Shown here: positions 4,312 to 50,954 of the stretch, one piece after another
Numbering within the stretch: position 1 is the stretch's first letter
Layout of the letters: each line of letters begins with the position of its first letter
Assembly: GCA_001890965.1 (NCBI GenBank)
Contig: MLAY01000008.1
Span: 424,341-488,340 of the forward strand
Length of the DNA: 64,000 nucleotides
Reading direction: 5' to 3'
From: a marine bacterium AO1-C
Lineage (GTDB): Bacteria; Bacteroidota; Bacteroidia; Cytophagales; Microscillaceae
Translations under genes and position numbers: made by a program
The notes under the pieces: generated by a model
What the model was told of the DNA's origin: nothing
The model's database searches: none
Seen by the model: the letters and a program-made list of their open reading frames with translations, nothing else

Positions 4312-4992
4312 AAAATTTATATTTGGGTAAAATCAAGAAGTTTAGTAAATGGGATGTGTATACTTATAGGATTGTATAATTGAAATATCGCCCCTATAAA
4401 GATTGTTTAAAATTACAATTGACAGGCAACCTGATCATATTCCAGTATAACAGTGAGGCTAAATATAAGTGGTTAATGATGTGTTTCATGTGGGTAGTTG
4501 TTTTAGAATTTAGATGAATTTATTTTTATGATCTTATAGTGAAGATAGGTTATCAAATTCATCGCCCCTATATCAAAAATTGGTTTTATAGATTCGAGGG
4601 GATTTTGTAGAGGAAGTATGACTTATTTTTATATCAAAAGTATTTTTATTTGATTTTGCAGGTAAAGTGAAAATATGCTTCTCAACACAATCATTTCTTG
4701 AGCACTTGTTCTCTACTAGCCCAGAACCTTGTTTGAATTTTTATTTCACAATTAACTCAAAACACCAAATTAAACCTTCCAAAAATCCTTATTTAGGTCG
4801 TCTATGTTTTGTCTATGCGCGAAAATTGTCTCTCCCACAAGTGACCTATAATTTTGCTCTTAATAAAAAATCAGTTTTAAGTAAATAAATGAGTGAATTC
4901 AACATTACGTGCTCCTTCGGTGGTAGGAAGGGGCACTAAAATGTTGTAAAACTTCTTAAATACTGAAAGCACATCAATAGCATTTTAGGTAT

Positions 4993-15180: not shown

Positions 15181-16227
15181 TTATTGATTCATTTTCCTCA
15201 AAATAAATTGTAAAATACTCTCTCCATTAGAGTTGTCCATATTCATCTGAGGGATAACTGCTACGCAGGCCAGACCTGCTTCATTGGCTTTTTCATAAAT
15301 AGCATTGGCATGTAATGGGTGGTGTAATACCGCGCCCTTATGTTCAGGAAACCTATAAGGTGAAGATGATTTGGTGACATAAATCTCAGGATCATTGCTA
15401 TCCATCATGCTTAACATATCTACGGCTTGACGATATGAATCTATTTCGGGAGAATCTAGCTCTTCCATAGAAGACAAGCCGTAAAACTTTAACAAAGTCC
15501 CTTCTCCAACCAGGCTTATAATTGTATCCTGGCTCATTCCTTCGCTTTCATATGTTGAAAAAACAGTGGTATGCCAATTTACCACATCATAAGTAGACTG
15601 GGTATTGGTGGCTATGATGCCTTTCACTTTTGTTGACTCCTTCAGAAACTCATATTGCCCATTTTCATTGGCAAAATCGTCCTGCAACCCAATCCAAAGG
15701 CTGGTTCCTGCTCCTGCCGAACCTCCCATCAGGATAATTTTTTCCTTATCGATATTAAAATCATTGGCATAATATCGAATCACCTGTAGAGCCCTTCTGG
15801 AATCATTCAGGCACTTACGTACCCCTATAGTTTCATTTTCTTCCAATAGACGATAGTTAATCGAGGCAAAGGCTATTTTATTAGCCAGCAGCGAATTGAT
15901 CAATGCTTCCTCTTTTGTGTAAGCTTTTGTTTTATCTCCACTGGTAAAACCTCCCCCATGAATATAGATTACTAATGGAGTAGGCTGGCTAGAAACAGGT
16001 GCCAGAAAGTCAAACTTATGTCTTTCGTCAAAACCATAGGGTATGTCTTCATAAAATGCGGCTTCAGCCGAGGTGTTAACTGGCAAGCTCGCTGTAGGTA
16101 TGAGTTCTAAAGAACCTTGGATAGGAAGATTGTAAGGATCTAATCTGTCAAGCAGGTGTTCATTGTTGGTACATGCAGCAAAAAACGAAATCACGAATAG
16201 TATACATAATGCCTTTTTCATATTCAA
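15181..16227 (-). CDS. Alpha/beta-hydrolase (HSL-family, HGGG motif) esterase/lipase lipoprotein, paralog 1
   Basis: IYIHGGGFTSGDK oxyanion motif; MGGSAGAG nucleophile elbow. Confidence 0.75.
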   Translation of the reverse strand: MNMKKALCILFVISFFAACTNNEHLLDRLDPYNLPIQGSLELIPTASLPVNTSAEAAFYEDIPYGFDERHKFDFLAPVSSQPTPLVIYIHGGGFTSGDKTKAYTKEEALINSLLANKIAFASINYRLLEENETIGVRKCLNDSRRALQVIRYYANDFNIDKEKIILMGGSAGAGTSLWIGLQDDFANENGQYEFLKESTKVKGIIATNTQSTYDVVNWHTTVFSTYESEGMSQDTIISLVGEGTLLKFYGLSSMEELDSPEIDSYRQAVDMLSMMDSNDPEIYVTKSSSPYRFPEHKGAVLHHPLHANAIYEKANEAGLACVAVIPQMNMDNSNGESILQFILRKMNQ

Positions 16228-16365
16228 ATAGTGATTAAAACTGAAACGTATAAATTGTATAATTTAAAGCGAATAAGTGCTCAAAACCTTTTTAAAACAC
16301 AGGTTCATTGCACATTTAACACATATACAATTTACGATTCTTGTTAGGCATCAGAAAGTTTTCCA

Positions 16366-16397
16366 CATAGACAAAATATGTACAATTCAAATTTCTC
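16366..16397 (-). promoter_or_regulatory. Conserved upstream element (catagacaaaatatgtacaa..caaatttctc) about 140 bp upstream of esterase paralog 1
   Basis: Near-identical copy at 18971..19002. Confidence 0.45.
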
Positions 16398-16550
16398 TTT
16401 GAATATTTTAAAGGCCTGCAGTGATCAATATTGATCGGGTATTAGAACTCATCTCGACTTCATATTCTAAAAAGCAAAAACTCGCCCTGACAGTAAAAAG
16501 TCAAAACGAGTTCATTAAACATAAAATGGTACTATGCTATACTCAAGGTA

Positions 16551-17576
16551 TTAGTTACCTATTTTCCTTAAAACAAAATTGGTAATGCTTTCTCCGTTAG
16601 AATTATCGATGTTCATTTGTGGGATAATAGCCACACAAGCCACTCCTGTTGCGCTGGCTTTATCCATCAACACTTTGGCATGTAACGGATGGTGTAATAC
16701 TGCACTTTTATCGGCTGGAAATCGGTAAGGAGCACCTGGTCTTGATACGTAGATTTCAGGATCATCGCCAGACATCAGGCTTAGCATATCTGCATCCATT
16801 CTTTTTTGTACCACTGTAGGCGAAGTGAGTTCGCTTAAAGAAGACATTCCATAAAATTGCAACACTGTTCCCTCCTCTACCAAGCTCACCACAGTGTCTT
16901 GATCCATACCTTGTGATGCGTATTCTGAAAATACGGTAGTATGCCAATCTGCCACGTCATAAGTAGACTGGGTATTCACCGCAATAATTCCTTGTACTCT
17001 TGTAGATTCTTTCAATATATCATCGGTAGCATTCGCATCGGCCAATTCATTGTTCAAACCAATCCACAAACTGGTTCCCGCTCCAGCAGAACTACCCATT
17101 AATACCACTTTATTTTTATCAATATTAAAAGAGCTGGCATAATACCTTATAAACTGAAGCGCTGTTTTAGAGTCATTCAAAGGCTTAAGTACTCCTTCGG
17201 TTTCGCTTGCCCCCTGTAATAAGCGATAATTTATCGTAGCGAAAGCAATGTTGTTAGACAAAAACGAATTGATTAAAGCTTCTTCATTATATATATCTTC
17301 TTTGTTGCCTGCAGTAAAGCCACCTCCGTGAATATAAATTACTAATGGAGTTGCCTGTGAAGACTCTGGGGCAAAAAAATCAAACACGTTTCTATTGTCT
17401 GAACCATAAGATACGTCCTTGTAAAAATTTACTTGTGCCGTAGTAGTAATGGGCGATTGAGACGCTGTAAGTGCTAGAGTAGGCACCTCGTTTTGAGGAG
17501 TAGGATCATCTCCTTCATTGTTATTACAGGAGGCAAAAAATAAAATAATAGCAAGTAAGTATACAGCGTTTTTCAT
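16551..17576 (-). CDS. Alpha/beta-hydrolase (HSL-family) esterase/lipase lipoprotein, paralog 2
   Basis: Same motifs; likely start at MKNAVYLL (17576). Confidence 0.75.
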   Translation of the reverse strand: MKNAVYLLAIILFFASCNNNEGDDPTPQNEVPTLALTASQSPITTTAQVNFYKDVSYGSDNRNVFDFFAPESSQATPLVIYIHGGGFTAGNKEDIYNEEALINSFLSNNIAFATINYRLLQGASETEGVLKPLNDSKTALQFIRYYASSFNIDKNKVVLMGSSAGAGTSLWIGLNNELADANATDDILKESTRVQGIIAVNTQSTYDVADWHTTVFSEYASQGMDQDTVVSLVEEGTVLQFYGMSSLSELTSPTVVQKRMDADMLSLMSGDDPEIYVSRPGAPYRFPADKSAVLHHPLHAKVLMDKASATGVACVAIIPQMNIDNSNGESITNFVLRKIGN

Positions 17577-17820
17577 AACCTGATGATTGTAAAAATTGAA
17601 AATAATTCCCCTCAACATTCGTAGTATTTTGGTAAAAAACTCTTATCTATATGAAGTCGAGATGACTCCTATTTTTAAAAACATATTTTGAATACAATAG
17701 TTTATGTATAGCAATACACGATGACCAGAAAAGCTATGTTAAAACAACATACAAGCAAAAATGTAGATATTTATAAAGGGGGCTTGTTGCGTTCCTGAAT
17801 AAGTGCAACAATTACCATTT

Positions 17821-18840
17821 TTAATTGCCTATCTTTCTTACAATAAAGGCCTCAATACTTTCTCCGTTAGAATTATCGATGTTCATCTGTGGAATTACCG
17901 CTACACAAGTAATCCCTCTTTCGCTGGCTTTATCCATCAATGCTTTGGCATGCAATGGGTGGTGCAATACCGATCCATAACTTGGAGGGAATAAATACGG
18001 CCCGCGATTGTTTACATAAATCTCAGGATCATCACTCGTCATTACATTGAACATATCTACTCTTTGTCGGTATTGGTCTGTTTCGGGGGTATTGATCTGT
18101 TCCACAGAAGACAAGCCATAAAATGTCAAAAACGTTGATTCTCCTGCCATATCCATAATAAATTCATCACTCATGCCTTGGCCTTGGTATTCCGAAAACA
18201 CCGCAGTATCCCAGGATAGCACATCATAAGTAGATTGCGTATTGGTAGCAATAATCGCCTGTACTCTGGTTGACTCTCTCTGAATCTCATCGGTCGCATT
18301 AGGATCAGCCAAATCATTATTTAACCCAATCCAAAGACTGGTTCCTGCTCCAGCAGAACCACCCATTAAGGCTACTTTGTTTTTATCAATATTGAAAGCA
18401 CTGGCATAATATCTTATGAACTGAAGCGCAGTTTTAGAGTCGTTCAAAGATTTTATTACTCCTTCAGTTTCGTTTTCTCCAAGCAAGCGATAATTAACCG
18501 TAGCAAAGGCAATTCCTTTATCCAATAAGGAGTTGATAAATGCCTGATCATTGTATATGGCTCTTTTGTCGCCACCAGTAAAACCACCTCCGTGGATGTA
18601 GATTAATAAAGGGGTGGGCTGGTCTGATGTAGGCGCAAAGAAGTCAAACGCATTCTTTTCGTCTGCACCATAAGATACATCCTGGTAAAATTTAACTGCT
18701 GTAGTGGTATTAAAGGGAGTATTGGATGTAGTGAGCGCTAATGTTGGCGCTTCTGACTGGGGTGTGGGTTCATCGGTTGTTTCTTGACTACAAGAAGCAA
18801 AAAATAAAATTACTGCTAGTAAATATACAGCCTTTTTCAT
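17821..18840 (-). CDS. Alpha/beta-hydrolase (HSL-family) esterase/lipase lipoprotein, paralog 3
   Basis: Same motifs; closely related to paralog 2 (N-terminal MKKAVYLLAVILFFASC). Confidence 0.75.
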   Translation of the reverse strand: MKKAVYLLAVILFFASCSQETTDEPTPQSEAPTLALTTSNTPFNTTTAVKFYQDVSYGADEKNAFDFFAPTSDQPTPLLIYIHGGGFTGGDKRAIYNDQAFINSLLDKGIAFATVNYRLLGENETEGVIKSLNDSKTALQFIRYYASAFNIDKNKVALMGGSAGAGTSLWIGLNNDLADPNATDEIQRESTRVQAIIATNTQSTYDVLSWDTAVFSEYQGQGMSDEFIMDMAGESTFLTFYGLSSVEQINTPETDQYRQRVDMFNVMTSDDPEIYVNNRGPYLFPPSYGSVLHHPLHAKALMDKASERGITCVAVIPQMNIDNSNGESIEAFIVRKIGN

Positions 18841-19634: not shown

Positions 19635-19676
19635 CATAAAAAAACCATTGCCTAACAACCTGTTAAACAATGGTTT
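19635..19676 (-). terminator. Minus-strand Rho-independent terminator at the distal end of the tRNA array
   Basis: aaaccattg...caatggttt stem followed by T7 on the minus strand. Confidence 0.6.
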
Positions 19677-19689
19677 ACATCGTAATCAA

Positions 19690-19839
19690 AAAAGGGGTAA
19701 CCAACGATCAGTGAATTAGTACTTTACCATTAAGCTACGAGGCCTTATGATTGGCTTGATCGTAAGGAGGCCCCGGTGGGAATCGAACCCACATCTCATC
19801 ATTAAAAGTGACGCGAAGTAACACTCATCTACGACACCC
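19690..19839 (-). ncRNA. Permuted/split tRNA-like unit a (Lys-like, anticodon TTT). Order on the minus strand: 26-nt leader, anticodon arm, T-arm, acceptor 3' strand CGGGGCC, 24-nt loop, acceptor 5' strand GGCCTCG, TA, D-arm, trailer
   Basis: Perfect 7-bp acceptor complementarity across the loop; canonical T-loop TTCGATT. Confidence 0.5.
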
Positions 19840-19842
19840 TTT

Positions 19843-19918
19843 TGGTTCGCCCGGTAGGATTCGAACCTACGGCCCTCTGATTAAGAGTCAGATGCTCTAC
19901 CAACTAAGCTACGAGCGA
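19843..19918 (-). tRNA. tRNA-Lys(CTT)
   Basis: Cloverleaf, anticodon loop CTCTTAA, CCA encoded. Confidence 0.85.
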
Positions 19919-19924
19919 ATTTCT

Positions 19925-20107
19925 ACAAGCAATATATCTGTAGAAAGGTTTATAAAAACAAGAGGTAACAAGCGGTAAGTGTACATAAAAACATTCTATC
20001 CAATTAAACTACAGGGGCATTATAATATATATTAGTGCCCCTGGCGGGATTCGAACCCGCACCTCATGATTTGGAGTCACGCGAAGTAACACTCACCTAC
20101 GACACTC
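19925..20107 (-). ncRNA. Permuted/split tRNA-like unit b (Trp-like, anticodon CCA). Acceptor 3' strand CAGGGGC, loop ACTAATATATATTATAAT, acceptor 5' strand GCCCCTG, D-arm. An 11-bp leader:trailer helix forms between GGTGAGTGTTAC and GTACACTTACC
   Basis: Sequence pairing read directly. Confidence 0.5.
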
Positions 20108-20109
20108 TT

Positions 20110-20185
20110 TGGTTCGTCCGGTGGGACTCGAACCCACAACCTTCCGGTTAAAAGCCGGGAACTCTACCAATTAAGCTACGAACGA
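20110..20185 (-). tRNA. tRNA-Lys(TTT)
   Basis: Anticodon loop CTTTTAA; CCA encoded. Confidence 0.85.
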
Positions 20186-20188
20186 ATG

Positions 20189-20263
20189 TGGCGGGAATGG
20201 CAGGAATCGAACCTGCGTCCGCTGTTTAACAGACAGCCGCTAGAACCACTCAGCTACACTCCC
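20189..20263 (-). tRNA. tRNA-Asn(GTT)
   Basis: Anticodon loop CTGTTAA; CCA encoded. Confidence 0.85.
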
Positions 20264-20300
20264 AAATTGTAGACCTGACCAATGCCAGGTCTATTATTTG

Positions 20301-20373
20301 CGCGGATGGAAGGAATCGAACCCTCACCTCTGGTGTTGGAGACCAGCATTCTAAAACATTGAACTACACCCGC
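20301..20373 (-). tRNA. tRNA-Trp(CCA)
   Basis: Anticodon loop CTCCAAC. Confidence 0.8.
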
Positions 20374-20521
20374 AGTACAAAAGAGGTTACAAGCAATAAG
20401 TGAACGTTTGCTGCTCTACCTACTGAGCTACTCTCGTGAGTAATTAAGTTTGCACGAGAGGTGGGACTCGAACCCACGACCCACCGATTAACTGTCGAAG
20501 TAACACTCATTTACGACACTC
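20374..20521 (-). ncRNA. Permuted/split tRNA-like unit c. Acceptor 3' strand CTCTCGT, loop, acceptor 5' strand ACGAGAG, D-arm GCTCAGTAGGTAGAGC. The anticodon arm is degenerate.
   Basis: Acceptor pairs across the loop; T-arm GTGGGTTCGAGTCCCAC. Confidence 0.45.
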
Positions 20522-20524
20522 TTT

Positions 20525-20600
20525 TGGTTCGCCTGATGGGACTCGAACCCACGACCCTCTGATTAAAAGTCAGATACTCTACCAACTAAGCTACAAGCGA
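20525..20600 (-). tRNA. tRNA-Lys(TTT)
   Basis: Cloverleaf; CCA encoded. Confidence 0.85.
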
Positions 20601-20605
20601 ATTTG

Positions 20606-20684
20606 CACGGATGGAAGGAATCGAACCTTCTTCATTATTTTTGGGCTTTTGGAGACCATAGCTCTACCATTGAGCTACATCCGT
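20606..20684 (-). tRNA. tRNA-Trp(CCA)-like variant; the 3' side of the anticodon stem is replaced or extended, so it is possibly a pseudogene
   Basis: Acceptor, D-arm and T-arm intact; anticodon stem unpaired. Confidence 0.5.
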
Positions 20685-20737
20685 GTATAGTTATTTTCTC
20701 AAACCTGTCAGAATTCTAAACCCGACAGGGTTAAAAG

Positions 20738-20811
20738 TTCGTCCGGTGGGACTCGAACCCACGACCTTCTGATTAAAAGTCAGATGCTCTACGCAACTAA
20801 GCTACGAACGA
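20738..20811 (-). tRNA. tRNA-Lys(TTT)
   Basis: Cloverleaf; no CCA. Confidence 0.8.
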
Positions 20812-20814
20812 ATG

Positions 20815-20889
20815 TGGCGGGAATGGCAGGAATCGAACCTGCGTCCGCTGTTTAACAGACAGCCGCTAAAACCACTCAGCTACACTCCC
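20815..20889 (-). tRNA. tRNA-Asn(GTT)
   Basis: Cloverleaf. Confidence 0.85.
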
Positions 20890-20926
20890 AAATTGTAGAC
20901 CTGACCAATATCAAGTCCATCATTCG

Positions 20927-20997
20927 CACGGATGGAAGGAATCGAACCCTCGTCGTTGGTTTTGGAGACCATAGCTCTACCATTGAGCTACATCCGT
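20927..20997 (-). tRNA. tRNA-Trp(CCA)
   Basis: Anticodon loop CTCCAAA. Confidence 0.8.
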
Positions 20998-21050
20998 GTA
21001 TAGTTATTTTATCAGACCTGTCAGAATTTTAAACCCGACAGGGTTAAAAG

Positions 21051-21124
21051 TTCGTCCGGTGGGATTCGAACCCACGACCTTCTGATTAAAAGTCAGATGC
21101 TCTACGCAACTAAGCTACGAACGA
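21051..21124 (-). tRNA. tRNA-Lys(TTT)
   Basis: Cloverleaf. Confidence 0.8.
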
Positions 21125-21127
21125 ATG

Positions 21128-21202
21128 TGGCGGGAATGGCAGGGATCGAACCTGCGTCCGCTGTTTAACAGACAGCCGCTAAAACCACTCAGCTACACTC
21201 CC
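21128..21202 (-). tRNA. tRNA-Asn(GTT)
   Basis: Cloverleaf. Confidence 0.85.
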
Positions 21203-21239
21203 AAATTGTAGACCTGACCAATGCCAGGTCTATTATTTG

Positions 21240-21312
21240 CGCGGATGGAAGGAATCGAACCCTCACCTCTGGTGTTGGAGACCAGCATTCTAAAACATTG
21301 AACTACACCCGC
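21240..21312 (-). tRNA. tRNA-Trp(CCA)
   Basis: Cloverleaf. Confidence 0.8.
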
Positions 21313-21460
21313 AGTACAAAAGAGGTTACAAGCAATAAGTGAACGTTTGCTGCTCTACCTACTGAGCTACTCTCGTGAGTAATTAAGTTTGCACGAGAGG
21401 TGGGACTCGAACCCACGACCCACCGATTAACTGTCGAAGTAACACTCATTTACGACACTC
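21313..21460 (-). ncRNA. Permuted/split tRNA-like unit c' (duplicate of unit c)
   Basis: Near-identical to 20374..20521. Confidence 0.45.
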
Positions 21461-21463
21461 TTT

Positions 21464-21539
21464 TGGTTCGCCTGGTGGGACTCGAACCCACGACCCTCTG
21501 ATTAAAAGTCAGATACTCTACCAACTAAGCTACAAGCGA
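21464..21539 (-). tRNA. tRNA-Lys(TTT)
   Basis: Cloverleaf. Confidence 0.85.
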
Positions 21540-21544
21540 ATTTG

Positions 21545-21624
21545 CACGGATGGAAGGAATCGAACCTTCTTCACTATTTTTTTGGGTTTTGGAGACCATA
21601 GCTCTACCATTGAGCTACATCCGT
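21545..21624 (-). tRNA. tRNA-Trp(CCA)-like variant (duplicate of 20606..20684)
   Basis: Anticodon stem disrupted. Confidence 0.5.
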
Positions 21625-21637
21625 GTGTAATTATTTG

Positions 21638-21709
21638 CGGGAATGGTAGGGTTCGAACCTACGTGTGTCCGCTTAACAGGCGGGTGCTAAACCACTCAGC
21701 TACACTCCC
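21638..21709 (-). tRNA. tRNA-Asn(GTT) variant with a divergent anticodon stem and T-arm
   Basis: Anticodon loop CTGTTAA. Confidence 0.7.
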
Positions 21710-21753
21710 AAGTTTTATTATTTTTTATTTGGTTCACTTATTTGTGGATGGCA

Positions 21754-21787
21754 TAAAAAAACCTCTTTGCGAATAACAAAGAGGTTT
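21754..21787 (-). terminator. Minus-strand terminator separating the upstream tRNA set from the duplicated Lys-Asn-Trp blocks
   Basis: aacctctttg...caaagaggtt stem followed by T7 on the minus strand. Confidence 0.6.
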
Positions 21788-21963
21788 AGCAGTATTCATA
21801 GAATATAAGAATAATACAACAAACTTCTTTATCACTCCAGGCAGTTACCCCACCACTTTTTATAATTCTTGTATTTATTATTATTCCAGTTCATTGCTAT
21901 AAATATTTTATATTAAAGTTAAAACTTACATTGTACTTTTTAAAAGATATAATAACCCTGTAG

Positions 21964-22036
21964 TTGCGTCAGAAGGAGTCGAACCCTCACCTTCTGGGTC
22001 GAAACCAGAAATTCTAATCCATTAAACTATGACGCA
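21964..22036 (-). tRNA. tRNA-Arg(TCG)
   Basis: Anticodon loop TTTCGAC. Confidence 0.8.
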
Positions 22037-22050
22037 ATATGTAATTCCAG

Positions 22051-22123
22051 TTGCGCTGGAAGGAGTCGAACCCTCATCCTCCGGGTAGAAACCGGACATT
22101 CTAATCCATTGAACTACAGCGCA
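22051..22123 (-). tRNA. tRNA-Arg(TCT)
   Basis: Anticodon loop TTTCTAC. Confidence 0.8.
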
Positions 22124-22137
22124 ATATGTAACTCTAG

Positions 22138-22210
22138 TTGCGCTGGAAGGAATCGAACCTTCATCTCATGCTTCGTAGACAAGTGTTCTAATCCGTTGAA
22201 CTACAGCGCA
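22138..22210 (-). tRNA. tRNA-Arg(ACG)
   Basis: Anticodon loop CTACGAA. Confidence 0.75.
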
Positions 22211-22215
22211 AGGTG

Positions 22216-22289
22216 GCACTCCGTTGGGAATCGAACCCAATTGCCCTGTTTCACAGACAGGGGCGTCAACCATTTTCGCCTCAGAGTGC
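22216..22289 (-). tRNA. tRNA-His(GTG) with G-1
   Basis: Anticodon loop CTGTGAA; an extra 5' G pairs with C73. Confidence 0.8.
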
Positions 22290-22298
22290 ATATATATG

Positions 22299-22372
22299 TC
22301 GGATAGGCAGGATTCGAACCTACGTGCTCTGGCATCCCGGGCCAGCGAAGACGACCACTCTTCCACTATCCG
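22299..22372 (-). tRNA. tRNA-Pro(GGG) with an unusual C33
   Basis: Acceptor CGGATAG; anticodon loop CCGGGAT. Confidence 0.65.
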
Positions 22373-22401
22373 ATATTCAAAGTATGTTGTTCATACTTTT
22401 G

Positions 22402-22475
22402 TCGGATAGGCAGGGTTCGAACCTGCGTTCTCTGGAGTCCAAGACCAGCGAGGATGACCACTCCTCCACTATCCG
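22402..22475 (-). tRNA. tRNA-Pro(TGG)
   Basis: Anticodon loop CTTGGAC. Confidence 0.8.
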
Positions 22476-22505
22476 ATTATAAATCTCTAATTATCAGTGT
22501 TTTAG

Positions 22506-22579
22506 TCGGATAGGCAAGATTCGAACTTGCGTACTCTAGTACCCAAAACTAGCGAGATAAACCACTCCTCTACTATCCG
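22506..22579 (-). tRNA. tRNA-Pro(TGG)-like (G37; 3-bp D-stem)
   Basis: Anticodon loop TTTGGGT. Confidence 0.6.
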
Positions 22580-22585
22580 ATGATT

Positions 22586-22662
22586 TGGTGTACCCTGAAG
22601 GATTTGAACCTTCAATCCCCTGGGTATGAGCCAGGTGCTTTCACCATTTAAGCTAAGGGTAC
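22586..22662 (-). tRNA. tRNA-Met(CAT), elongator type (possibly Ile2)
   Basis: Anticodon loop CTCATAC; G1-C72; CCA encoded. Confidence 0.8.
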
Positions 22663-22680
22663 TGCTGTGACCATTGGCTA

Positions 22681-22718
22681 CAAAAAAAGCCTTACTTCAA
22701 TTGAGGCAAGGCTTTTTG
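22681..22718. terminator. Bidirectional Rho-independent terminator
   Basis: aaagcctt...aaggcttt stem flanked by an A-run and a T-run. Confidence 0.6.
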
Positions 22719-22888
22719 GAGATGGGTAATCTCTACGGTTTACTGCAGTCATAGCAGTAGCCTTGCCGTTTTGGGTTTCTTTATCCGTATCGGATGCCAA
22801 CGGTGTTTTCTATTAATGGTGTTATATCTTGTCGGGACAATCATTGTTATCTTGTTTTCTATATTATTTTGCTTCAAATTTCTTTTAG

Positions 22889-22961
22889 AGCACCCACAAG
22901 GAATCGAACCTTGATCCACTGATTACAAGTCAGTTATTCTAAGCCGTTGAACTACAGGTGC
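22889..22961 (-). tRNA. tRNA-Thr(TGT)
   Basis: Anticodon loop CTTGTAA. Confidence 0.8.
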
Positions 22962-22985
22962 TTATATTATTCATCATTTGCTTGG

Positions 22986-23058
22986 AGCACCTACAAGGAA
23001 TCGAACCTTGATCCATTGATTACTAAACAATAATTTTAAACCGTTAAACTATAGGTGC
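22986..23058 (-). tRNA. tRNA-Thr-like with an atypical anticodon loop (TTAGTAA gives AGT, or a 9-nt loop); possibly a pseudogene
   Basis: Paralog of 22889..22961. Confidence 0.5.
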
Positions 23059-23066
23059 TATTACTC

Positions 23067-23143
23067 TGGTATGCTCTGGGGGACTCGAACCCCCGATTAC
23101 TTGTGTATCAGACAAGTGCCTTGACCAACTTGGCTAAGAGCAT
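23067..23143 (-). tRNA. tRNA-Ile(GAT)
   Basis: Anticodon loop CTGATAC; CCA encoded. Confidence 0.85.
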
Positions 23144-23198: not shown

Positions 23199-23239
23199 CA
23201 AAAAAAAGCCTTGCAGTTTCTCAGCGAATCTGCAAGGCT
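23199..23239 (-). terminator. Minus-strand Rho-independent terminator upstream of the tRNA array
   Basis: agccttgcag...ctgcaaggct 10-bp stem followed by T8 on the minus strand. Confidence 0.6.
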
Positions 23240-23754
23240 CTCGGTGTATATTTGGTTGTTTGTTTTCTCTTCTGTGTCTTTAAACCGTCATTGTTGCTTT
23301 CTTTTTAGGTTCTTAGACTTTCCGTTGCAAACATATTCACCTCATTGGCCTTGCAGAATCCGGGGCGTCTCGTAATCCGCTTGTGATTCCACGGCTTATT
23401 TATTATTGGGGTGATATGTTTTTGTTTTAGTAACATAATGATACAAAGGTAATAACGTGATTTTTACTATGCAAGTTTTAAGCGTAATTTTTTTATTTTT
23501 TATTTCATTTTCAACTTTAAAAGTAAAACAAATATTCAAAAACTTACTTAACTATTGATACGACAAAGTAAAAGAAAGGTTTTCAAAATCACAAATATTT
23601 TTCTAAAAACAATTAATTAACAAGGATAATACCAATATTAAATAAATACAATTACTAACATATACATAAGTTTGTGGTCTAAAATTCAATACGTTAGTTC
23701 CAAAAAATTTACTTACTTTGGTTTTGTATTCTACCATCAACAAAATCTACAAAA

Positions 23755-24255
23755 ATGAAATTCCGTCTCTCTTATGTGTTTATGGTTTGCATTTTGGCTG
23801 CTATTGTAAGCTGCAAAAAACCCAATAAAACCACTGATAAACCAGTCGTTATTAAATCGCTTTGGCAAGTAGATGCTAAAAAAAGCTATGCTTCAGAAGA
23901 GAAAGTTGTAATCAAATTCAAAAATATCAGTCCACAAGCTCTTACTATTTATGATCCTTTGATGGTAGAAGTAGAACAAAAACTGGCCAATGAAGGCTCT
24001 AAAACACAATGGAAAAAAGTACGTTGGTTGTATTGCCCCTGTGGTGCTTCTTGCCCTCCCCCACCTCGTACTATGGACATTGACCAAGATCAAACTAAGA
24101 CCTTTGTGTGGAATAAAATAGAAAAGTGGTGTGATGCCCAAGGCAAAACCGCTCAACAAAAGGCAACTCAAGGAACCTATCGCTTAAAACTCACTTATAA
24201 AAACCCAAAAACTTCAGAAAGGGAAATCCATTACCAAGAATTCAACATTGAATAA
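23755..24255 (+). CDS. Cys-rich lipoprotein, function unknown
   Basis: Lipobox VSC; 166 aa. Confidence 0.5.
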   Translation: MKFRLSYVFMVCILAAIVSCKKPNKTTDKPVVIKSLWQVDAKKSYASEEKVVIKFKNISPQALTIYDPLMVEVEQKLANEGSKTQWKKVRWLYCPCGASCPPPPRTMDIDQDQTKTFVWNKIEKWCDAQGKTAQQKATQGTYRLKLTYKNPKTSEREIHYQEFNIE

Positions 24256-24258
24256 ACG

Positions 24259-25863
24259 CTATTTTGATCCTCTTCTGGTTTGCTGGAAATTTCTAAGCTG
24301 TTGCTGAATCTTAGCAATATCTCGTTTGAATTTAGATTTACGAATCTGTTCATAGATTTTGCGGAATCCCGAGGAACCCAATTGACGCAAACTCTCCACA
24401 ATCGTACTTTTAACAGGGTGAGGATACTCATCGTACTTACGAATGGTTTTAAAAGCCGGGAAATTGGCATTTTGCTCCAGTTCTTTTTCCAAATAAGTAT
24501 CGGTAAGCCCTAATTGCTGACGAATGGACTTAAACTGAGGTGCTACAAACATATAGTCGGTGTGGGTAAACCAAGAATTGAGTTCGTGTCGATAAAAATC
24601 ACCCTGAAGGTGAGAACTACCAGCTAAATCTACCACGTCATTATCAGCAATATTATGCGTTACTTGAGGGCGATTTTTTTGTCGAGCAAATTGCGCAGCT
24701 GAATCTCTGTCAATTCCAGGAGCTTGAAAGGTAACTACCCGATTGGCCACTCCAGGAAAATAAGCTGCAGCATACTGGGCTAAAGCACCACCTAAGCTAT
24801 GTCCGGTAAAATCAGCTTTTCCTCCAGCATCCTTGATTATTTGCAAAATCAAATTGGCATTCTTGTATAATTGATCAAAGCCTACACCCACAGGGTTCAA
24901 ATCAGTGGTAATATCTTCTATATGAGTGGGTTGTGTTCCTCGAAAGGCAATCACTGGATTTTTGGATAATCCTCGTAATGGTTGAATACGCACTGCATCG
25001 AAGTCTTGCTTGCCGTGATATACACGAGCGGTACGCAGATCATACCCCATTCTCCGTAAAATCTTATTAGCCTGTTGCCACGGCTTGCTGGGGCTGTTTG
25101 TTTGGCCTTGATTGATAAAATCTTCGTCTTTATAAGCCAGAAAGTGCGCCAGGTATTCAAAGGATACATTTTCTACCCCCAACTCTTCAGCATAGCTATG
25201 TACATCTTGCTGAAATTCGTAAAAAATAGGTGCTTGTCCTTTTTTACTGGCCTTACATACAATTTTGTGGGTGCCAGGAAAACCTGCCTTAAAGCTTCCC
25301 GTAGCCGAAGAAGTGCCTTTGGCCATCGTAGAGCTTTTTTTATCATAAGCCCCTGTGGTATTGAAGTCATTGACTGCATACCATTGGTAGCTATCATATT
25401 TTTGCCCCAGTTGGTACGAAACTCTATCACCTGGATATACTGCTTTGCCTGTATGGCTACTCTTAATGCCACTTCTTTTTACTGTAAAGTTGGTGGCTGA
25501 TTCTTTGGGAAGGTAAGCCCCAAAACCCGCAGATTTTAGCTGATAAGCAGCAAACTGCCAGTCTTCATCACTCCAAAAGCTCTTCATTTCGTCCCGCAAT
25601 CGTGGGATGAACTTTTCTTTGTAGGTAGCTTCATACTGAGCAATGACCATTTTTAACTGCTGATGTGGCAAGTTTAATACCCGATGAACGGTTTGTTCGT
25701 CGGTGCCCAGTCCTGAAAAAGCTTCGTGAATTTGTCCTACCAGATCTCCAGTTGATTCTTCGGTAGAGTTGGGTATAAATCGATTGGTGAGTTGTTGGCT
25801 GGTAGACTGTTGGTCTTGCACCATTGTCTCCTCCGACTTCAAAAGTTGCGTTTTCCCAGGCAT
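24259..25863 (-). CDS. Class-3 lipase-family alpha/beta hydrolase with an N-terminal annexin-like GLGTDE motif; no signal peptide
   Basis: FTGHSLGGALAQYAAAY nucleophile elbow. Confidence 0.65.
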   Translation of the reverse strand: MPGKTQLLKSEETMVQDQQSTSQQLTNRFIPNSTEESTGDLVGQIHEAFSGLGTDEQTVHRVLNLPHQQLKMVIAQYEATYKEKFIPRLRDEMKSFWSDEDWQFAAYQLKSAGFGAYLPKESATNFTVKRSGIKSSHTGKAVYPGDRVSYQLGQKYDSYQWYAVNDFNTTGAYDKKSSTMAKGTSSATGSFKAGFPGTHKIVCKASKKGQAPIFYEFQQDVHSYAEELGVENVSFEYLAHFLAYKDEDFINQGQTNSPSKPWQQANKILRRMGYDLRTARVYHGKQDFDAVRIQPLRGLSKNPVIAFRGTQPTHIEDITTDLNPVGVGFDQLYKNANLILQIIKDAGGKADFTGHSLGGALAQYAAAYFPGVANRVVTFQAPGIDRDSAAQFARQKNRPQVTHNIADNDVVDLAGSSHLQGDFYRHELNSWFTHTDYMFVAPQFKSIRQQLGLTDTYLEKELEQNANFPAFKTIRKYDEYPHPVKSTIVESLRQLGSSGFRKIYEQIRKSKFKRDIAKIQQQLRNFQQTRRGSK

Positions 25864-26486: not shown

Positions 26487-29400
26487 ATGAAACGAATCAT
26501 TATTACTCTAATTTTTATTTTGGGGTTGTTGCCTATAATGCCCCAAACGTATGCGCAAGTAGACTTTAGAGAGGAAACTATTTACTTCCTCTTAACTACC
26601 CGTTTTTTTGACGGAGACCCAAGCAATAATGTCCCCAATGAATGGAGTTCATATAATCCTGATCCAAACATCAACCCTACGATTACTGACCCTAATGATG
26701 TAACCTGGCGAGGAGATTTCAAGGGATTGATTCAAAAGCTAGACTATATCAAAGATTTGGGCTTTACGGCTATTTGGATCACGCCCATTGTACAGAACCG
26801 CAGTCCTTTGGATTATCACGGATATCACGCTTATGATTTTACCAAAGTAGATCCTCGTTTAGAGTCACCTGGGGCCACTTTTCAGGATTTGATTAATGCG
26901 GTGCACGCCCGCGGGATGAAAATCGTACTGGATATTGTAACCAATCACGCAGGGCGTTTTGGTATAAAAAACGTTGCCGAAATAAAGTACAATACCGACC
27001 CTACCAAGCCTTGGGGGCAAGACAAAAATGGTAACCCTTTGCAACCTAACCCCAACTGGACTTATGATGGAATTACGCCTAATCCAGATGATGGAAAAAT
27101 TTGGAGTAGAGCGAATCTTCCAACAATGCCCCCTCCTTACAATCAAAACCTGGCGGCTTTTCAGTGGCCTTCTAAGGAATCCTATGTAGACACCAGCGAT
27201 CCTAATTGGTATCATCATTCAGGAAATGGGTTTGCTCAAGGATTCGACGACACAGAAAACCTACATAATAGAGCTTTGGCAGGTGATACGCCCGACTTAA
27301 ATACAGGTAGTCAAGCGGTACGCGATTATTTGATTGCGGCTTATACCAAATTTATCAATATGGGGGTAGATGCATTTCGTTGGGACACTATGAAGCATAT
27401 GAGCAAAGAAGATGTGCTTTATTTCAAAGATGCGTTCCATAGTGTTAATCCTAATTTATTCATTTTTGGAGAGGTAGCTCAGTTGAGACACGAACTTCAT
27501 AATCTGGAAGAAATCAATCCCCATTACTATACTTGGCGAGGTGCTGTAGGACAATCGGCCAACTCAGACATTGCCGTATTGGACTTCTTTGCTGAGGCCA
27601 CTTTTCACGGAGTATTTGAGGAAGGGCGTAACTTCTCAGAAGTAACGGCAGCAGCTCGCTACGATCACTTATACAGCGATCCTTCTACGCTATTGACTTG
27701 GTTAGACAACCACGACTTTGGCCCTAATAATGATTGGAACCGACGTTATGGAGGTACTGAGGAAAATCTGGCAGCTTGTATGAATTTTATGTTTACGTGG
27801 CGAGGTATCCCAGTAGTATATTATGGTACCGAAATTCAATTCATGAAAGGGGCTTATGCCGACATTCACAATGCGGCTGGTATAGAGCAATCTATTGACC
27901 TCACTGGACGGGCTTATTACGGTGATCAATTCGCCAATGCACCCAATCATATCATTTATCAACATATTAAAAAACTCAATGCCATTCGCCGAGCTGTACC
28001 CGCTTTGCAAAAAGGATCATATCGCTGGGATGGTAACGGTGGCGGTAGAGCTATAGGTTATGTGCGCAAGCACGGCGATAGCGAAGTAGCAGTGGGGTTA
28101 GCCAAAGATGGTGGGGCTAGTTTTACTTTTTCGGGGCTCACCAATGGTATTTACCGTGACGCTGTAACTGGAGCCGAGATATCGGTAACCAATGGCTCAT
28201 TAAGTTTTTCGGTTACTTCTGGTTCGGCGGGTATTTATGTACTCAATGGCCCTGGAATGATTGGAGGCAATGGTGTGGGTTATTTTCAACCAGGCAATGG
28301 TAGCAGTGCACCTATAGTAAGTGCCAGCCCAGCTTCTGGAGTGTATTCTTCACCTATACAGGTAACACTTTCTGCTTCTTCGAGCAATAACCCAGTTACT
28401 ATTTATTATACAACCGATGGCAGCAACCCTACAACCAATAGTGCTCAATATACAGGCGCAATTAACGTGGCTTCTACCAGTACAATTAAAGCTCTGGCCG
28501 TTGATAATCAAGGGGGTCAATCCCAGGTTTTATCTCAAAGTTACGTAATTGGTGACGCTGGATTTTCGGTATATCTCAAAAAAGATCCAAGCTGGAATCA
28601 AGCCCGTATTCATCATTGGGGGGCACAACCTGCGGGCATATTGAGCGATAGCAACTGGCCAGGAGTAATTATGACCGATGTAGGCAATGGATGGTATCGC
28701 TTTGATTTCAACGGAGTTATCAGTAGCAACCTATTGTTTCACGACAATGCGGGCAACAAAACAATAGATATGTCCCGAAATAAAGATGGATGGTACCAGG
28801 ACGGGCAATGGTTCGATCAAGACCCCAGAGTTTCGGTCAATCTTCCGCCAAGCTTGACAGTGACTCCAGGAGGAGGTAATTTTTCGGTAGGACAATCCAT
28901 ACAAGTTACTTTGGCCAGTTCCGATGACAATGATCCCTCCCCTGTCATTTATTACACATTAGATGGTAGTACTCCAAGCACTAGTTCTACGTCATACAGC
29001 GGCTCAATCAACCTTACTCAAACTACTACTCTAAAAGCAATCGCGGTAGATAACCAAGGCTTGGCTTCTTCGGTAGCTACTCATACTTATACCTTTACTA
29101 CTGCCCCCAGTGGATTAACGGTTCATTTTAAACCCAATGGCTATAACAATCCTACGATTTATTATTGGGCAGTAACGCCTAGTGGACAAACTACTACCTG
29201 GCCAGGGGTGTCTATGACAGATGAAGGTGATGGATGGTATGGTTTTACGTTGGCAGGCGCCAATTGCGCCAATATAATTTTTAGTAATAACGGTGGCAGT
29301 CAAACCCCAGACTTATCCAGATGCAGTGAAGGATGGTATGTAGACGGCGTATGGTATGACCAAAAACCAACGCCTGCTGCTGGTCTTACGATTCATTTTA

Positions 29401-29933
29401 AAAAGCCTTCTAACTGGAACACCGCCAATATGCATTATTGGAATGTAACTCCAGCTACTGTTCCTGGTACCAACTGGCCAGGGGTAAGCATGCAAAACGA
29501 TGGCAATGGCTGGTACAGTTATACTATTCCGCAGGCTTCTTGTGCCAATATTGTGTTTAACGACAATGGTGGTAATCAAACAGGAGATTTGTCGCGTTGC
29601 GGAGAAGGATGGTACGACAATGGCTGGTCTAGCACGGCTCGTCGTACAAAACAAGTATTGGCACCTACAAATACCACATTGCAAACCAGAATCAGTCCTA
29701 ACCCTTCCAGTGAATACGCAATGGTGAGTTTCACCCTCAAAGAAGGCCAAAATGTACGCCTCAAAGTGTATGATCAGTTAGGAAACGAGGTTTTGAGCAA
29801 TCATGTACAACAGCTTCATAAAGGAAACCATTCAGTAGTTATCAATACCAGTCAATTGGCTAATGGAGTATACATTATACAGCTCAATACTTCCAGTAAA
29901 ACGGTTCGCAAACGATTGGTAATTCAGAAGTAA
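26487..29933 (+). CDS. GH13 alpha-amylase with three starch-binding-like repeats, Ig/FN3-like domains and a C-terminal T9SS sorting domain
   Basis: GH13 conserved blocks (GFTAIWITP, VDAFRWDTMKH, FGE, WLDNHD); T9SS C-terminal domain ...GVYIIQL...VRKRLVIQK. Confidence 0.85.
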   Translation: MKRIIITLIFILGLLPIMPQTYAQVDFREETIYFLLTTRFFDGDPSNNVPNEWSSYNPDPNINPTITDPNDVTWRGDFKGLIQKLDYIKDLGFTAIWITPIVQNRSPLDYHGYHAYDFTKVDPRLESPGATFQDLINAVHARGMKIVLDIVTNHAGRFGIKNVAEIKYNTDPTKPWGQDKNGNPLQPNPNWTYDGITPNPDDGKIWSRANLPTMPPPYNQNLAAFQWPSKESYVDTSDPNWYHHSGNGFAQGFDDTENLHNRALAGDTPDLNTGSQAVRDYLIAAYTKFINMGVDAFRWDTMKHMSKEDVLYFKDAFHSVNPNLFIFGEVAQLRHELHNLEEINPHYYTWRGAVGQSANSDIAVLDFFAEATFHGVFEEGRNFSEVTAAARYDHLYSDPSTLLTWLDNHDFGPNNDWNRRYGGTEENLAACMNFMFTWRGIPVVYYGTEIQFMKGAYADIHNAAGIEQSIDLTGRAYYGDQFANAPNHIIYQHIKKLNAIRRAVPALQKGSYRWDGNGGGRAIGYVRKHGDSEVAVGLAKDGGASFTFSGLTNGIYRDAVTGAEISVTNGSLSFSVTSGSAGIYVLNGPGMIGGNGVGYFQPGNGSSAPIVSASPASGVYSSPIQVTLSASSSNNPVTIYYTTDGSNPTTNSAQYTGAINVASTSTIKALAVDNQGGQSQVLSQSYVIGDAGFSVYLKKDPSWNQARIHHWGAQPAGILSDSNWPGVIMTDVGNGWYRFDFNGVISSNLLFHDNAGNKTIDMSRNKDGWYQDGQWFDQDPRVSVNLPPSLTVTPGGGNFSVGQSIQVTLASSDDNDPSPVIYYTLDGSTPSTSSTSYSGSINLTQTTTLKAIAVDNQGLASSVATHTYTFTTAPSGLTVHFKPNGYNNPTIYYWAVTPSGQTTTWPGVSMTDEGDGWYGFTLAGANCANIIFSNNGGSQTPDLSRCSEGWYVDGVWYDQKPTPAAGLTIHFKKPSNWNTANMHYWNVTPATVPGTNWPGVSMQNDGNGWYSYTIPQASCANIVFNDNGGNQTGDLSRCGEGWYDNGWSSTARRTKQVLAPTNTTLQTRISPNPSSEYAMVSFTLKEGQNVRLKVYDQLGNEVLSNHVQQLHKGNHSVVINTSQLANGVYIIQLNTSSKTVRKRLVIQK

Positions 29934-50698: not shown

Positions 50699-50744
50699 TT
50701 CTCTCCCTCCCTACGTTTGATATCCTTGAATTTTCCTGCTTACT

Positions 50745-50906
50745 TTGCATTATTAAGGTGAAACAATTCATTTCTTAATAGGGAATCAGGTGCAAACCCT
50801 GAACAGTCCCCGCTGCTGTAACTCTCACTTTTGATTTGGTACAATGAGCCACTGTTTAACGAAACGGGAAGGCGTACCAAATGAGAGAAGTCAGAAGACC
50901 TGCCTT
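50745..50906 (+). ncRNA. Cobalamin (adenosylcobalamin) riboswitch
   Basis: GGTGAAA...GGGAATCAGGTGCAAACCCTGAACAGTCCCCGCTGCTGTAA...GCCACTG...GGGAAGGC...AGTCAGAAGACCTGCC. Confidence 0.85.
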
Positions 50907-50954
50907 AATGCTCATTTTAATCACAGTACTTTCGGGAGAAAAGTCTTTAACATC

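Follow-up and report, generated by a model that had tools for sequence, protein, structure and literature searches.

Organization of the tRNA array

We describe a tRNA gene array in a 64,000-nucleotide stretch of DNA (the window; all coordinates are positions within it) from "marine bacterium AO1-C", order Cytophagales, in which short leader open reading frames (ORFs) and Y RNA-like units accompany the tRNA genes on the minus strand. ARAGORN called 27 minus-strand tRNA-type genes between 19766 and 23143, of which 26 fall inside 19843-23143; ARAGORN and Rfam together resolve these 26 into 24 canonical genes and two degenerate Trp copies (Trp*). An earlier note on this DNA had counted 26 minus-strand tRNA genes, and the count was borne out, as the Rfam model RF00005 supports 25 of the 26 at its gathering score and matches the tRNA-His gene (22288-22215) in a permissive run only, with 45 bits. 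Long tRNA arrays are known, in Bacteroidota as elsewhere (PMC4758250; PMC8421152), and an L-array has been defined as 20 or more tRNA genes packed at 2 or more per kb (Tran et al. 2016, PMC4758250); with 26 tRNA-type genes in 3.3 kb (∼7.9 per kb) the array qualifies by number and density. It serves nine amino acids only, namely Ile, Thr, Met or Ile2, Pro, His, Arg, Asn, Trp and Lys.

In the direction of transcription the genes form three sets. Set 1 (22888-23143) consists of Ile(GAU) (23143-23067), Thr(AGU) (23058-22983) and Thr(UGU) (22961-22888). Set 2 (21963-22662) begins with a CAU gene for Met or Ile2 (22662-22586), followed by two Pro(UGG) genes (22579-22505 and 22475-22401), Pro(GGG) (22372-22298), the His gene, Arg(ACG) (22210-22137), Arg(UCU) (22123-22050) and Arg(UCG) (22036-21963), so that the upstream genes are those previously listed (Ile, two Thr, Met(CAU), three Pro, His and three Arg). 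Set 3 (19843-21709) is amplified and holds 15 tRNA-type genes, the two Trp* copies included. It contains Asn(GUU), Trp(CCA) and Lys(UUU) genes and one Lys(CUU), and with three of the four units described below as Y1 to Y4 it is transcribed in the order Asn, Trp*, Lys, [Y4], Trp, Asn, Lys, Trp, Asn, Lys, Trp*, Lys, [Y3], Trp, Asn, Lys, [Y2], Lys(CUU).

Set 3 carries the marks of tandem duplication. The Lys-Asn-Trp block, which had been said to occur four times, is found as a strict triplet three times (20110-20373, 20737-20997 and 21050-21312; 87-94% identical), the fourth copy being rearranged as Lys-Trp*-Asn (21464-21709); along the transcript the triplet reads Trp-Asn-Lys. A longer block is duplicated as well, 20110-20700 and 21051-21640 being 95.6% identical (568/594), close to the ∼93% of the earlier estimate. 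Both Trp* genes (21624-21544 and 20684-20605) have an anticodon stem weakened to 3 bp and an A-rich insertion of 12-13 nt, and ARAGORN miscalled one of them as Leu-CAA. The spacers are not all 2-40 nt long, as had been supposed, since five gaps between genes measure 150-250 nt and are occupied by other elements. Terminators do divide the array, although two of them, not three, are internal, another lying before the first tRNA gene and another at the end. The locus is in sum a dense tRNA array, made by tandem duplication and divided by terminators.

Two features of the tRNAs themselves are kept in related arrays: a U1-A72 first pair in every Lys and Arg tRNA of the array (19843-22210), and the anticodon AGU, with A34, in one Thr tRNA (22983-23058). 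Both are unusual among bacterial tRNAs. Conserved minus-strand hairpins that lack T-runs stand in the spacers at 21010-21045, 20697-20732, 21205-21235, 20892-20919, 20266-20293 and 19925-19955 (for example CCTGTC...GACAGG and AGACCTG...CAGGTCT), and these short hairpins may be processing sites.

Leader reading frames and attenuators

A putative Bacteroidota-type promoter (23444-23474, minus strand) precedes the array and consists of a TTG (23474-23472), a spacer of 20 nt and TACCTTTG (23451-23444), with 7 nt to the ATG of the first leader ORF. It resembles TTG...TAnnTTTG, which we take to be the Bacteroidota promoter consensus, and the motif with its spacing (TTG-N20-TACCTTTG-N7-ATG) is kept in four further lineages. 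Some 70 nt upstream of this promoter lies an intergenic element of ∼50 nt, GAAAACCTTTCTTTTACTTTGTCGTATCAATAGTTAAGTAAGTTTTTGA (23537-23584, minus strand), which, in contrast to the spacer around it, is kept partly or wholly in the related sequences L129/L130, L133, L134 and L142 and which could be a second promoter or an operator. (Labels with three digits denote sequences other than the window.)

Three minus-strand ORFs look like translated leader peptides: L1 (23305-23436; 43 codons, MLLKQKHITPIINKPWNHKRITRRPGFCKANEVNMFATESLRT), L2 (22749-22844; 31 codons, MIVPTRYNTINRKHRWHPIRIKKPKTARLLL) and L3 (21832-21894; 20 codons, MNWNNNKYKNYKKWWGNCLE). Their composition was compared with a set fixed in advance, namely the nine amino acids that the array serves, {I,T,M,P,H,R,N,W,K}. 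Residues 4-25 of L1 belong to this set at 21 of 22 positions and L2 at 24 of 30, against a background frequency of 0.38 in long ORFs and 0.45 in short ones. Among 44,074 stop-free segments of 22 residues in all six frames, 21/22 was reached by four, one in L1, two in L2 and one elsewhere. L3 is composed differently: 13 of its 19 residues are Asn, Lys or Trp and none is from set 1 or set 2, and this Asn/Lys/Trp fraction (0.68) is the highest among 291 short ORFs, the next being 0.42. The expectation that L1 and L2 would each match the block directly downstream failed, as both match the whole nine-amino-acid set, and a nested model was therefore adopted, in which all three tRNA sets are represented in L1 and L2, and Asn, Lys and Trp alone in L3.

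Each leader is followed by a G+C-rich hairpin with 7-8 T. Terminator T1 (23200-23239) is formed by AGCCTTGCAG, a 13-nt loop, CTGCAAGGCT and T8; T2 (22682-22715) has the 5' arm AGCCTTGCC; and T3 (21787-21754), part of attenuator 3 (21754-21830), pairs AAACCTCTTTG with CAAAGAGGTTT ahead of its T-run. A consensus terminator scan of the minus strand found only T3 and the final terminator T4, T1 and T2 being seen on folding. Every leader overlaps or abuts a copy of the 3' arm of its own terminator. In L1 the antiterminator strand CTGCAAGGC occupies 23356-23348, and the 3'-arm copy there (CUGCAAGGC) forms 9/9 bp with the T1 5' arm. In L2 the strand GGCAAGGCT (22767-22759) is the exact complement of the T2 5' arm, the copy (GGCAAGGCU, same positions) again giving 9/9 bp. 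In the case of L3 the strand AAAGAAGTTT (21830-21821) begins one base past the UGA stop, and the copy (AAAGAAGUUU, 21830-21821) forms 9/10 bp with the 5' arm of T3. In the minimum-energy folds of L1 and L2 a segment inside the control-codon zone, region 1 (GGAATC, 23390-23385, in L1; CCGTTGG, 22803-22797, in L2), pairs with the antiterminator strand, region 2, and the enrichment for amino acids of the set ends where region 2 starts. The terminators had been read as plain sub-operon ends; each instead comes after a small ORF, conserved among lineages, with an antiterminator copy overlapping it or lying against it, and together T1 to T3 look like leader-peptide attenuators with putative, mutually exclusive antiterminators.

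Related arrays were recovered through homologues of the flanking genes in L126 and L142, in L130 (with L129, L131 and L132), in L133 and in L134. Five lineages have L1, four have L2 and two have L3, with lengths of 43-44, 31 and 20 codons, respectively: the frame and length of L1 are kept in L130, L133, L134 and L142, L2 is kept in L126, L130 and L133, and the L3 homologue in L126 is MNWNKNKYKNNKKWWNNYLQ. Across a nucleotide divergence of 13-23% the leaders hold their frame, length and composition. At positions occupied by an amino acid of the set, 21 replacements stay within it and 3 leave it, and 9 further replacements enter it; in the L126 lineage residues 4-25 of L1 belong to the set at all 22 positions. 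Between the window and L126 the similarity spans attenuator 2 from the ATG to the T-tract, and in attenuator 3 some 30 nt upstream of the ATG are conserved too; of attenuator 1, L126 contains the terminator end only, conserved up to the T-tract.

The helices are also maintained. The terminator and antiterminator helices of attenuator 1 are both 100% paired in four lineages, and in L133 one joint change (C/G/C to U/A/U) in the antiterminator strand and in the 5' and 3' terminator arms leaves both fully paired. T3 shows one compensatory change, A-U to G-C, in L126, and a hairpin over the L2 stop codon shows compensatory changes as well. As for the tRNA genes of the related arrays, L130 (1-330, minus strand) carries tandem Arg(UCG)-like repeats with an insertion of ∼20 nt in the D region, which ARAGORN does not call and which show that such arrays duplicate and decay quickly. 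An Asn-like tRNA gene in L124 (∼4590-4700, minus strand) is broken by a D-loop insertion of ∼25 nt.

Y RNA-like genes associated with set 3

Four minus-strand units, Y1 (19692-19841), Y2 (19960-20109), Y3 (20381-20523) and Y4 (21320-21462), are built on a plan other than that of a tRNA gene. In all four a T arm and the 3' strand of an acceptor come first, and 12-25 nt on, the matching acceptor 5' strand and a D arm follow; the leader GTGTCGTARRTGAGTGTTACTTCG and the trailer CACTKAYYGYTKGTWACCYCTT are common to all. Each unit starts 1-2 nt past the encoded CCA of a tRNA-Lys (2 nt in Y4). On the 3' side Y1 runs to the final intrinsic terminator T4 (19635-19676, minus strand), a hairpin with a T-run that has the same position in L124 and L126, Y2 is followed by a 41-nt spacer, and Y3 and Y4 reach the next tRNA gene within ∼10 nt. 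Y3 and Y4 are the "permuted c-Lys" tRNA units of the earlier note, which are Y RNA-like instead, having sequence and covarying structure in common with RNAs encoded beside Ro60/Rsr; Y1 and Y2 had not been called there, and the 5' part of Y1 (19766-19838) is the 27th gene, miscalled tRNA-Lys by ARAGORN.

The structure predicted for Y3 has a terminal helix, interrupted by a bulged U and an internal loop, a short hairpin whose loop reads CAGUUAA, a T arm, an acceptor-like stem of 8 bp that is closed, and a D arm; the architecture of Y4 is identical. Neither has a proper anticodon stem. Y1 and Y2 bear a full 5-bp anticodon-type arm, with a Lys-like loop (CUUUUAA) in Y1, a Trp-like loop (CUCCAAA) in Y2 and one covarying pair; homologues of Y2 occur in L125, L126 and L124. 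In relatives the corresponding loops read UUU, CCA, GUU or UCG. A view of the Y3 loop as an Asn mimic was dropped, as relatives have UUU or GUU loops and rsr-linked units carry the same loop on a 2-bp stem.

Several lines of evidence support that these units are homologous to RNAs encoded next to rsr. First, a scan of a genome collection for the leader and T loop returned four loci. In three Sphingobacteriaceae (Desertivirga xinjiangensis, Mucilaginibacter aquatilis and M. agri) the motif follows, at a distance of 200-350 nt and on the same strand, a gene for a protein of 526-540 amino acids with TROVE and vWA_Ro60 domains, an Rsr/Ro60 orthologue; the fourth locus, on a contig of a Microscillaceae metagenome-assembled genome, has the tRNA-Lys and Y unit arranged as in the window. 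The units of the window share identical leaders of 25 nt with these rsr-adjacent RNAs, which come from another Bacteroidota class. Secondly, a covariance model built from six rsr-adjacent units only (R1) matched the four units over its full length, with 99.2 (Y4; E 3e-23), 99.2 (Y3), 68.4 (Y1) and 64.7 (Y2) bits, whereas tandem tRNA-tRNA junctions gave at most 24.5 bits and partial matches only. This comparison matters insofar that tandem tRNAs are a known false positive of YrlA covariance searches, and hits overlapping them were dropped in published screens (PMC4201824). Thirdly, RNAalifold on 18 units predicted a helix P1a (6 bp, an invariant bulged U and 2 bp; AAGAG-U-GU / AC-CUCUU), an internal loop (CGUA against 7 nt) and a helix P1b (8 bp; RRUGAGUG / CACUKAYY), together with the T arm, the closed 8-bp acceptor-like stem and the D stem, with compensatory changes in 21 of 33 pairs. 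Part of the terminal helix that we had favored at first, GAG(U)GUUAC/GUAACCUC, was ruled out by covariation among the units. Finally, a strict pairing search recovered only the four Y sites in the 64 kb and no equally good site on either strand of ∼1 Mb of unrelated viral DNA; a 14-mer scan of viral DNA gave chance matches only, which the pairing search marks as noise.

The helix motif of the window units, GYCGUA, agrees with the published GNCGAA at five of six positions, and the Rfam YrlA family (RF02553) matches them with 27.6-42.6 bits, three of the four matches covering the full model. On the strength of sequence and covarying structure we identify the four units as Y RNA genes of a YrlA-like type, which would presumably bind Rsr. 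Their acceptor-like stem of 7-8 bp may be cut by RNase P, by analogy with Mycobacterium smegmatis YrlA (PMC4201824).

Downstream of rsr in the Sphingobacteriaceae the Y-like units form tandem series of four to six (L121 4040-4530, L122 3740-2980 and L123 5060-5960), in which the GYCGUA leader is constant and the inner domains vary between tRNA-like modules and simple hairpins. A minimal Y-like RNA, with the terminal helices and internal loop only and no tRNA-like domain, is found on the phage contig IMGVR_UViG_3300025913_000045 (L128 751-817, minus strand), ∼150 nt upstream of a phage tRNA cluster (Leu, Leu, Ser).

Genomic context and distribution

The window is ordinary Bacteroidota chromosome, with genes for FtsH, biotin protein ligase, a UvrA paralogue and type IX secretion proteins. 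The array is present in at least five related lineages and absent at the syntenic locus of Microscilla marina and of L138, a related metagenomic lineage, where the right-hand neighbors are kept and a methyltransferase gene stands at the position of the array. The absence from the M. marina locus indicates that the array was gained or lost within the family, and the methyltransferase gene in its place puts it at a synteny breakpoint, specific to the AO1-C clade. A connection with phages or mobile elements had been suggested on account of the unusual arrangement, and it found no support: among the 39 largest ORFs of the window none within ∼10 kb of the array is a phage, integrase, conjugation or plasmid gene, BLAST against phage and plasmid collections returned single-tRNA similarity only (generic tRNA-Lys), and the locus is syntenic across several related lineages. 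The DNA of leader L2 had no match in a viral scan, and a scan of metagenome DNA gave one truncated contig and nothing else. A phage or plasmid origin of the array has no support from these sequence comparisons.

Proposed mechanism and alternative explanations

We hypothesize that the locus is a chromosomal, lineage-specific and inducible reserve tRNA operon, gated by ribosome stalling on its own cognate codons and co-expressing Y RNAs, and from the sequence features above we consider this reading probable. According to our hypothesis a single Bacteroidota-type promoter would give rise to an almost leaderless transcript, and the serial attenuators L1/T1, L2/T2 and L3/T3 would set how far RNA polymerase travels. 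During smooth translation of a leader the ribosome would cover or disrupt the antiterminator strand, and the terminator would form. When charged tRNA is scarce, the ribosome would stall in the control zone, leaving the antiterminator strand to pair with the 5' arm of the terminator, and transcription would read through into the next tRNA block. Since Asn, Lys and Trp codons occur in all leaders, and Arg, Pro and His codons in L1 and L2 only, we read the arrangement as one of block-by-block transcription: a shortage of set-3 tRNAs could open all three gates, and a shortage affecting set 1 or set 2 (for example at Arg, Pro or His codons) would open T1 and T2 only, with transcription stopping before set 3.

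Expression of the Y RNAs would accompany that of the amplified Lys/Asn/Trp block. Because each Y unit sits directly between tRNA genes, the tRNA-processing enzymes would be expected to release it, its 5' side being freed when the preceding tRNA is processed at its 3' end and its 3' side when RNase P cleaves the tRNA that follows. The Y RNAs could then work with Rsr and an exonuclease, or serve as tRNA decoys, when Lys, Asn and Trp tRNAs are depleted or damaged; given the link reported in Salmonella (PMC7790460), a role in handling damaged tRNAs or as decoys is plausible but unproven. Anticodon nucleases, synthetase inhibitors and starvation are candidate triggers. What the sequences show directly are the features of the locus, their covariation and conservation and the codon statistics; stalling-dependent readthrough, expression, Rsr binding and the natural trigger are what we infer from them.

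The hypothesis should be viewed with some caution, as several observations weigh against it. Regarding the switch, L3 is known from two lineages only and has no predicted anti-antiterminator, and the covariation of the antiterminator is a single event among 4 sequences, for which a shuffling control was not significant (107/500). The terminator prevails in every full-length minimum-energy fold but that of L3 with a stalled ribosome, which means that any switch would need to act kinetically. The composition of the leaders is not free of ambiguity either: Ile and Thr codons also occur in L2, where strict nesting has no need of them, and A-rich spacers favor Lys, Asn and Ile codons, a bias that the six-frame control corrects in part. 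With respect to the Y RNAs, no unit reaches the RF02553 gathering score of 69 bits (best 42.6), and no TROVE/Rsr gene is among the 39 largest ORFs of the window, the units thus lying outside the ∼4-kb proximity to rsr. The rsr-adjacent Bacteroidota units likewise score below the gathering threshold (34-39 bits), which indicates that RF02553 does not cover this clade. As to the second point, the best 120 matches of an Rsr homologue search were all from Sphingobacteriaceae.

Among the alternatives, the attenuators could be real and yet sense general translation stress, such as antibiotics or ribosome damage, in the manner of ermC-type leaders or of the Anabaena trn operon. Translation inhibitors induce the Anabaena L-array (PMC8421152), the codon mix of L1 and L2 is broad, and in L3, where an anti-antiterminator is lacking, any slowed translation or failed initiation would favor readthrough. 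A general sensor, however, needs no restriction to the nine amino acids of the array, it leaves unexplained why L3 is limited to Asn, Lys and Trp with none of sets 1 and 2, and substitutions between lineages keep membership in the set rather than the peptide sequence. We regard general stress sensing as unlikely on these grounds.

It also seems rather improbable that the array is the only or main source of these tRNAs in the cell, with the attenuators providing an everyday, homeostatic feedback on supply. M. marina and the related metagenomic lineage lack the array beside the same neighbors, so that in these close relatives the tRNAs must be encoded elsewhere, and several of the tRNAs look atypical by general knowledge of bacterial tRNAs (U1-A72 in the Lys and Arg genes, Thr(AGU), degenerate Trp). 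Such a housekeeping function would fit the chromosomal location of the locus, its lack of mobility genes and its retention in at least five lineages.

A more skeptical account holds that this is an ordinary supernumerary array with plain promoters and terminators, the small ORFs being accidents of A-rich spacers and the Y-like units decaying, functionless pairs of tandem tRNAs. Long arrays of Bacteroidota often contain pseudogenes (PMC8421152), two Trp* copies here are degenerate, random short ORFs average 0.45 for the nine amino acids, and tandem tRNAs can mimic YrlA in covariance searches (PMC4201824); yet the leaders are extreme outliers in the six-frame control, they survive 13-23% divergence in frame, length and composition, and each has a copy of the 3' arm of its terminator within or directly beside it. 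Moreover, the Y units have identical 25-nt leaders and covarying helices in common with rsr-adjacent RNAs, and they score 65-99 bits where true tRNA junctions give at most 24.5. We consider this account very unlikely.

No more credible is the proposal that a phage or mobile element carries the array as cargo directed against tRNA-cleaving defenses, a function put forward for mycobacterial and phage arrays (PMC12803027). In its favor are the synteny breakpoint at the array and the phage contig with a minimal Y-like RNA beside its tRNAs. Lys tRNA is, moreover, a classic target of anticodon nucleases. Here, however, no integrase, phage or conjugation genes were found nearby, phage and plasmid records match single tRNAs at most, and the genes on the flanks are kept stably from lineage to lineage. 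Circularly permuted tRNA genes in the true sense, circularized and recut as in Cyanidioschyzon merolae, are suggested by the 3' half (anticodon arm, T arm and acceptor 3' strand) preceding the matching 5' half (acceptor 5' strand and D arm), but can be set aside as the flanks are helices of 8+8 bp with one bulged U and a 4/7-nt internal loop rather than a bulge-helix-bulge, homologues adjoin rsr, Y3 and Y4 have no proper anticodon stem, and we know of no bacterial splicing endonuclease of the required kind.

Returning to the reserve operon gated by stalling, its parts may further be joined into a feedback circuit, a proposal that we put forward tentatively and would not yet favor. The tRNA operon would gauge how well its own products are decoded by means of three nested leaders in series, and be transcribed up to the block in short supply; the last block would also make Y RNAs that mimic whole tRNAs, with Lys-like and Trp-like arms, and that handle or decoy the depleting agent, for example anticodon nucleases.

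Relation to known systems and significance

The closest parallel to the array as such is that of Anabaena PCC 7120, which likewise has more than 20 tRNA genes, densely packed on one strand, includes degenerate copies and is present or absent among relatives (PMC4758250; PMC8421152). Like the PCC 7120 array, the one in the window is plausibly silent until translation is impaired. The PCC 7120 array covers most amino acids and is controlled at the promoter by direct repeats and the repressor TrcR (PMC8421152, PMC10272220), whereas the one described here serves nine amino acids, has one block amplified, is interleaved with Y RNA genes and is apparently controlled by three serial leader-peptide attenuators.

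These attenuators resemble trpL, hisL, thrL and the pheM leader of pheST in having a short ORF rich in control codons, predicted alternative pairings of regions 1:2, 2:3 and 3:4, and, ahead of the regulated genes, an intrinsic terminator that ends in a T-run. In contrast to the classical leaders, which regulate biosynthetic enzymes or synthetases with control codons for one to three amino acids, the leaders in the window precede tRNA genes and Y RNAs, involve up to nine amino acids, and stand three in series with nested codon sets.

In the YrlA class (Salmonella, M. smegmatis; RF02553) the two ends of the RNA pair into a helix that contains a bulge and an internal loop and leads into a T arm, an acceptor-like stem that is closed, and a D arm. 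The same plan is predicted for the window units, whose homologues adjoin rsr and whose 7-8 bp stem resembles the acceptor-like stem of the RNase P-cleaved M. smegmatis YrlA (PMC4201824). The window units differ in lying within a tRNA array, flanked by tRNAs and not within 4 kb of rsr, in the motif GYCGUA instead of GNCGAA, in scores below the Rfam gathering threshold, and in the full anticodon-type arm of Y1 and Y2 with its Lys-like or Trp-like loop. The Salmonella rsr-yrlBA-rtcBA operon also co-expresses Y RNAs in a response tied to tRNA damage (PMC7790460). There, RtcR senses tRNA fragments and the operon encodes Rsr, RtcB and RtcA; the unit in the window has no protein genes, and the signal that we propose is ribosome stalling.

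A full-text literature search of incomplete coverage yielded no report of leader-peptide control of tRNA genes or arrays, and none of Y RNAs embedded in tRNA arrays; tRNA genes are not mentioned in a genome-wide survey of attenuators. If the feedback circuit proposed above is real, tRNA genes would for the first time be seen under the control of leader-peptide attenuation, and Y RNAs would have their first functional link to a reserve set of tRNAs. The regulation of supernumerary bacterial arrays is largely unknown, the one well-studied case, Anabaena, being that of a promoter-bound repressor. A leader-peptide gate would instead sense tRNA shortage codon by codon and supply exactly the missing tRNAs, and classical attenuation would extend to a new class of target genes and to the Bacteroidota. 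Y RNAs with anticodon-type arms inside a tRNA operon would moreover offer a concrete system in which to address the role of the tRNA-like domain, be it to act on specific tRNAs or to replace them. As tRNA finders and Rfam thresholds mislabel such Y genes, and screens for Y RNAs deliberately dropped hits to tandem tRNAs, other arrays may conceal comparable cases.

Other features of the window

The right-hand neighbors of the array (23755-25863) are a gene for a protein of 166-190 amino acids without a Pfam match and a convergent gene for an Ntox3 and lipase-like protein of 530-535 amino acids, a pair that is kept in L129, L133, L134, L136 and L141 and resembles a toxin with a partner protein. 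Downstream of the array, three tandem paralogous esterase genes of the BD-FAE type occupy 15181-18840 (minus strand), at least the first two of which are present in L126. Compared with M. marina, the window has in addition a gene for an amylase secreted by the type IX secretion system (26487-29933) and one for a DDE transposase (33193-34101), both amid otherwise syntenic sequence. Finally, a cobalamin riboswitch (50739-50921, plus strand; 108 bits) lies upstream of a gene for a periplasmic binding protein and a CobU gene.

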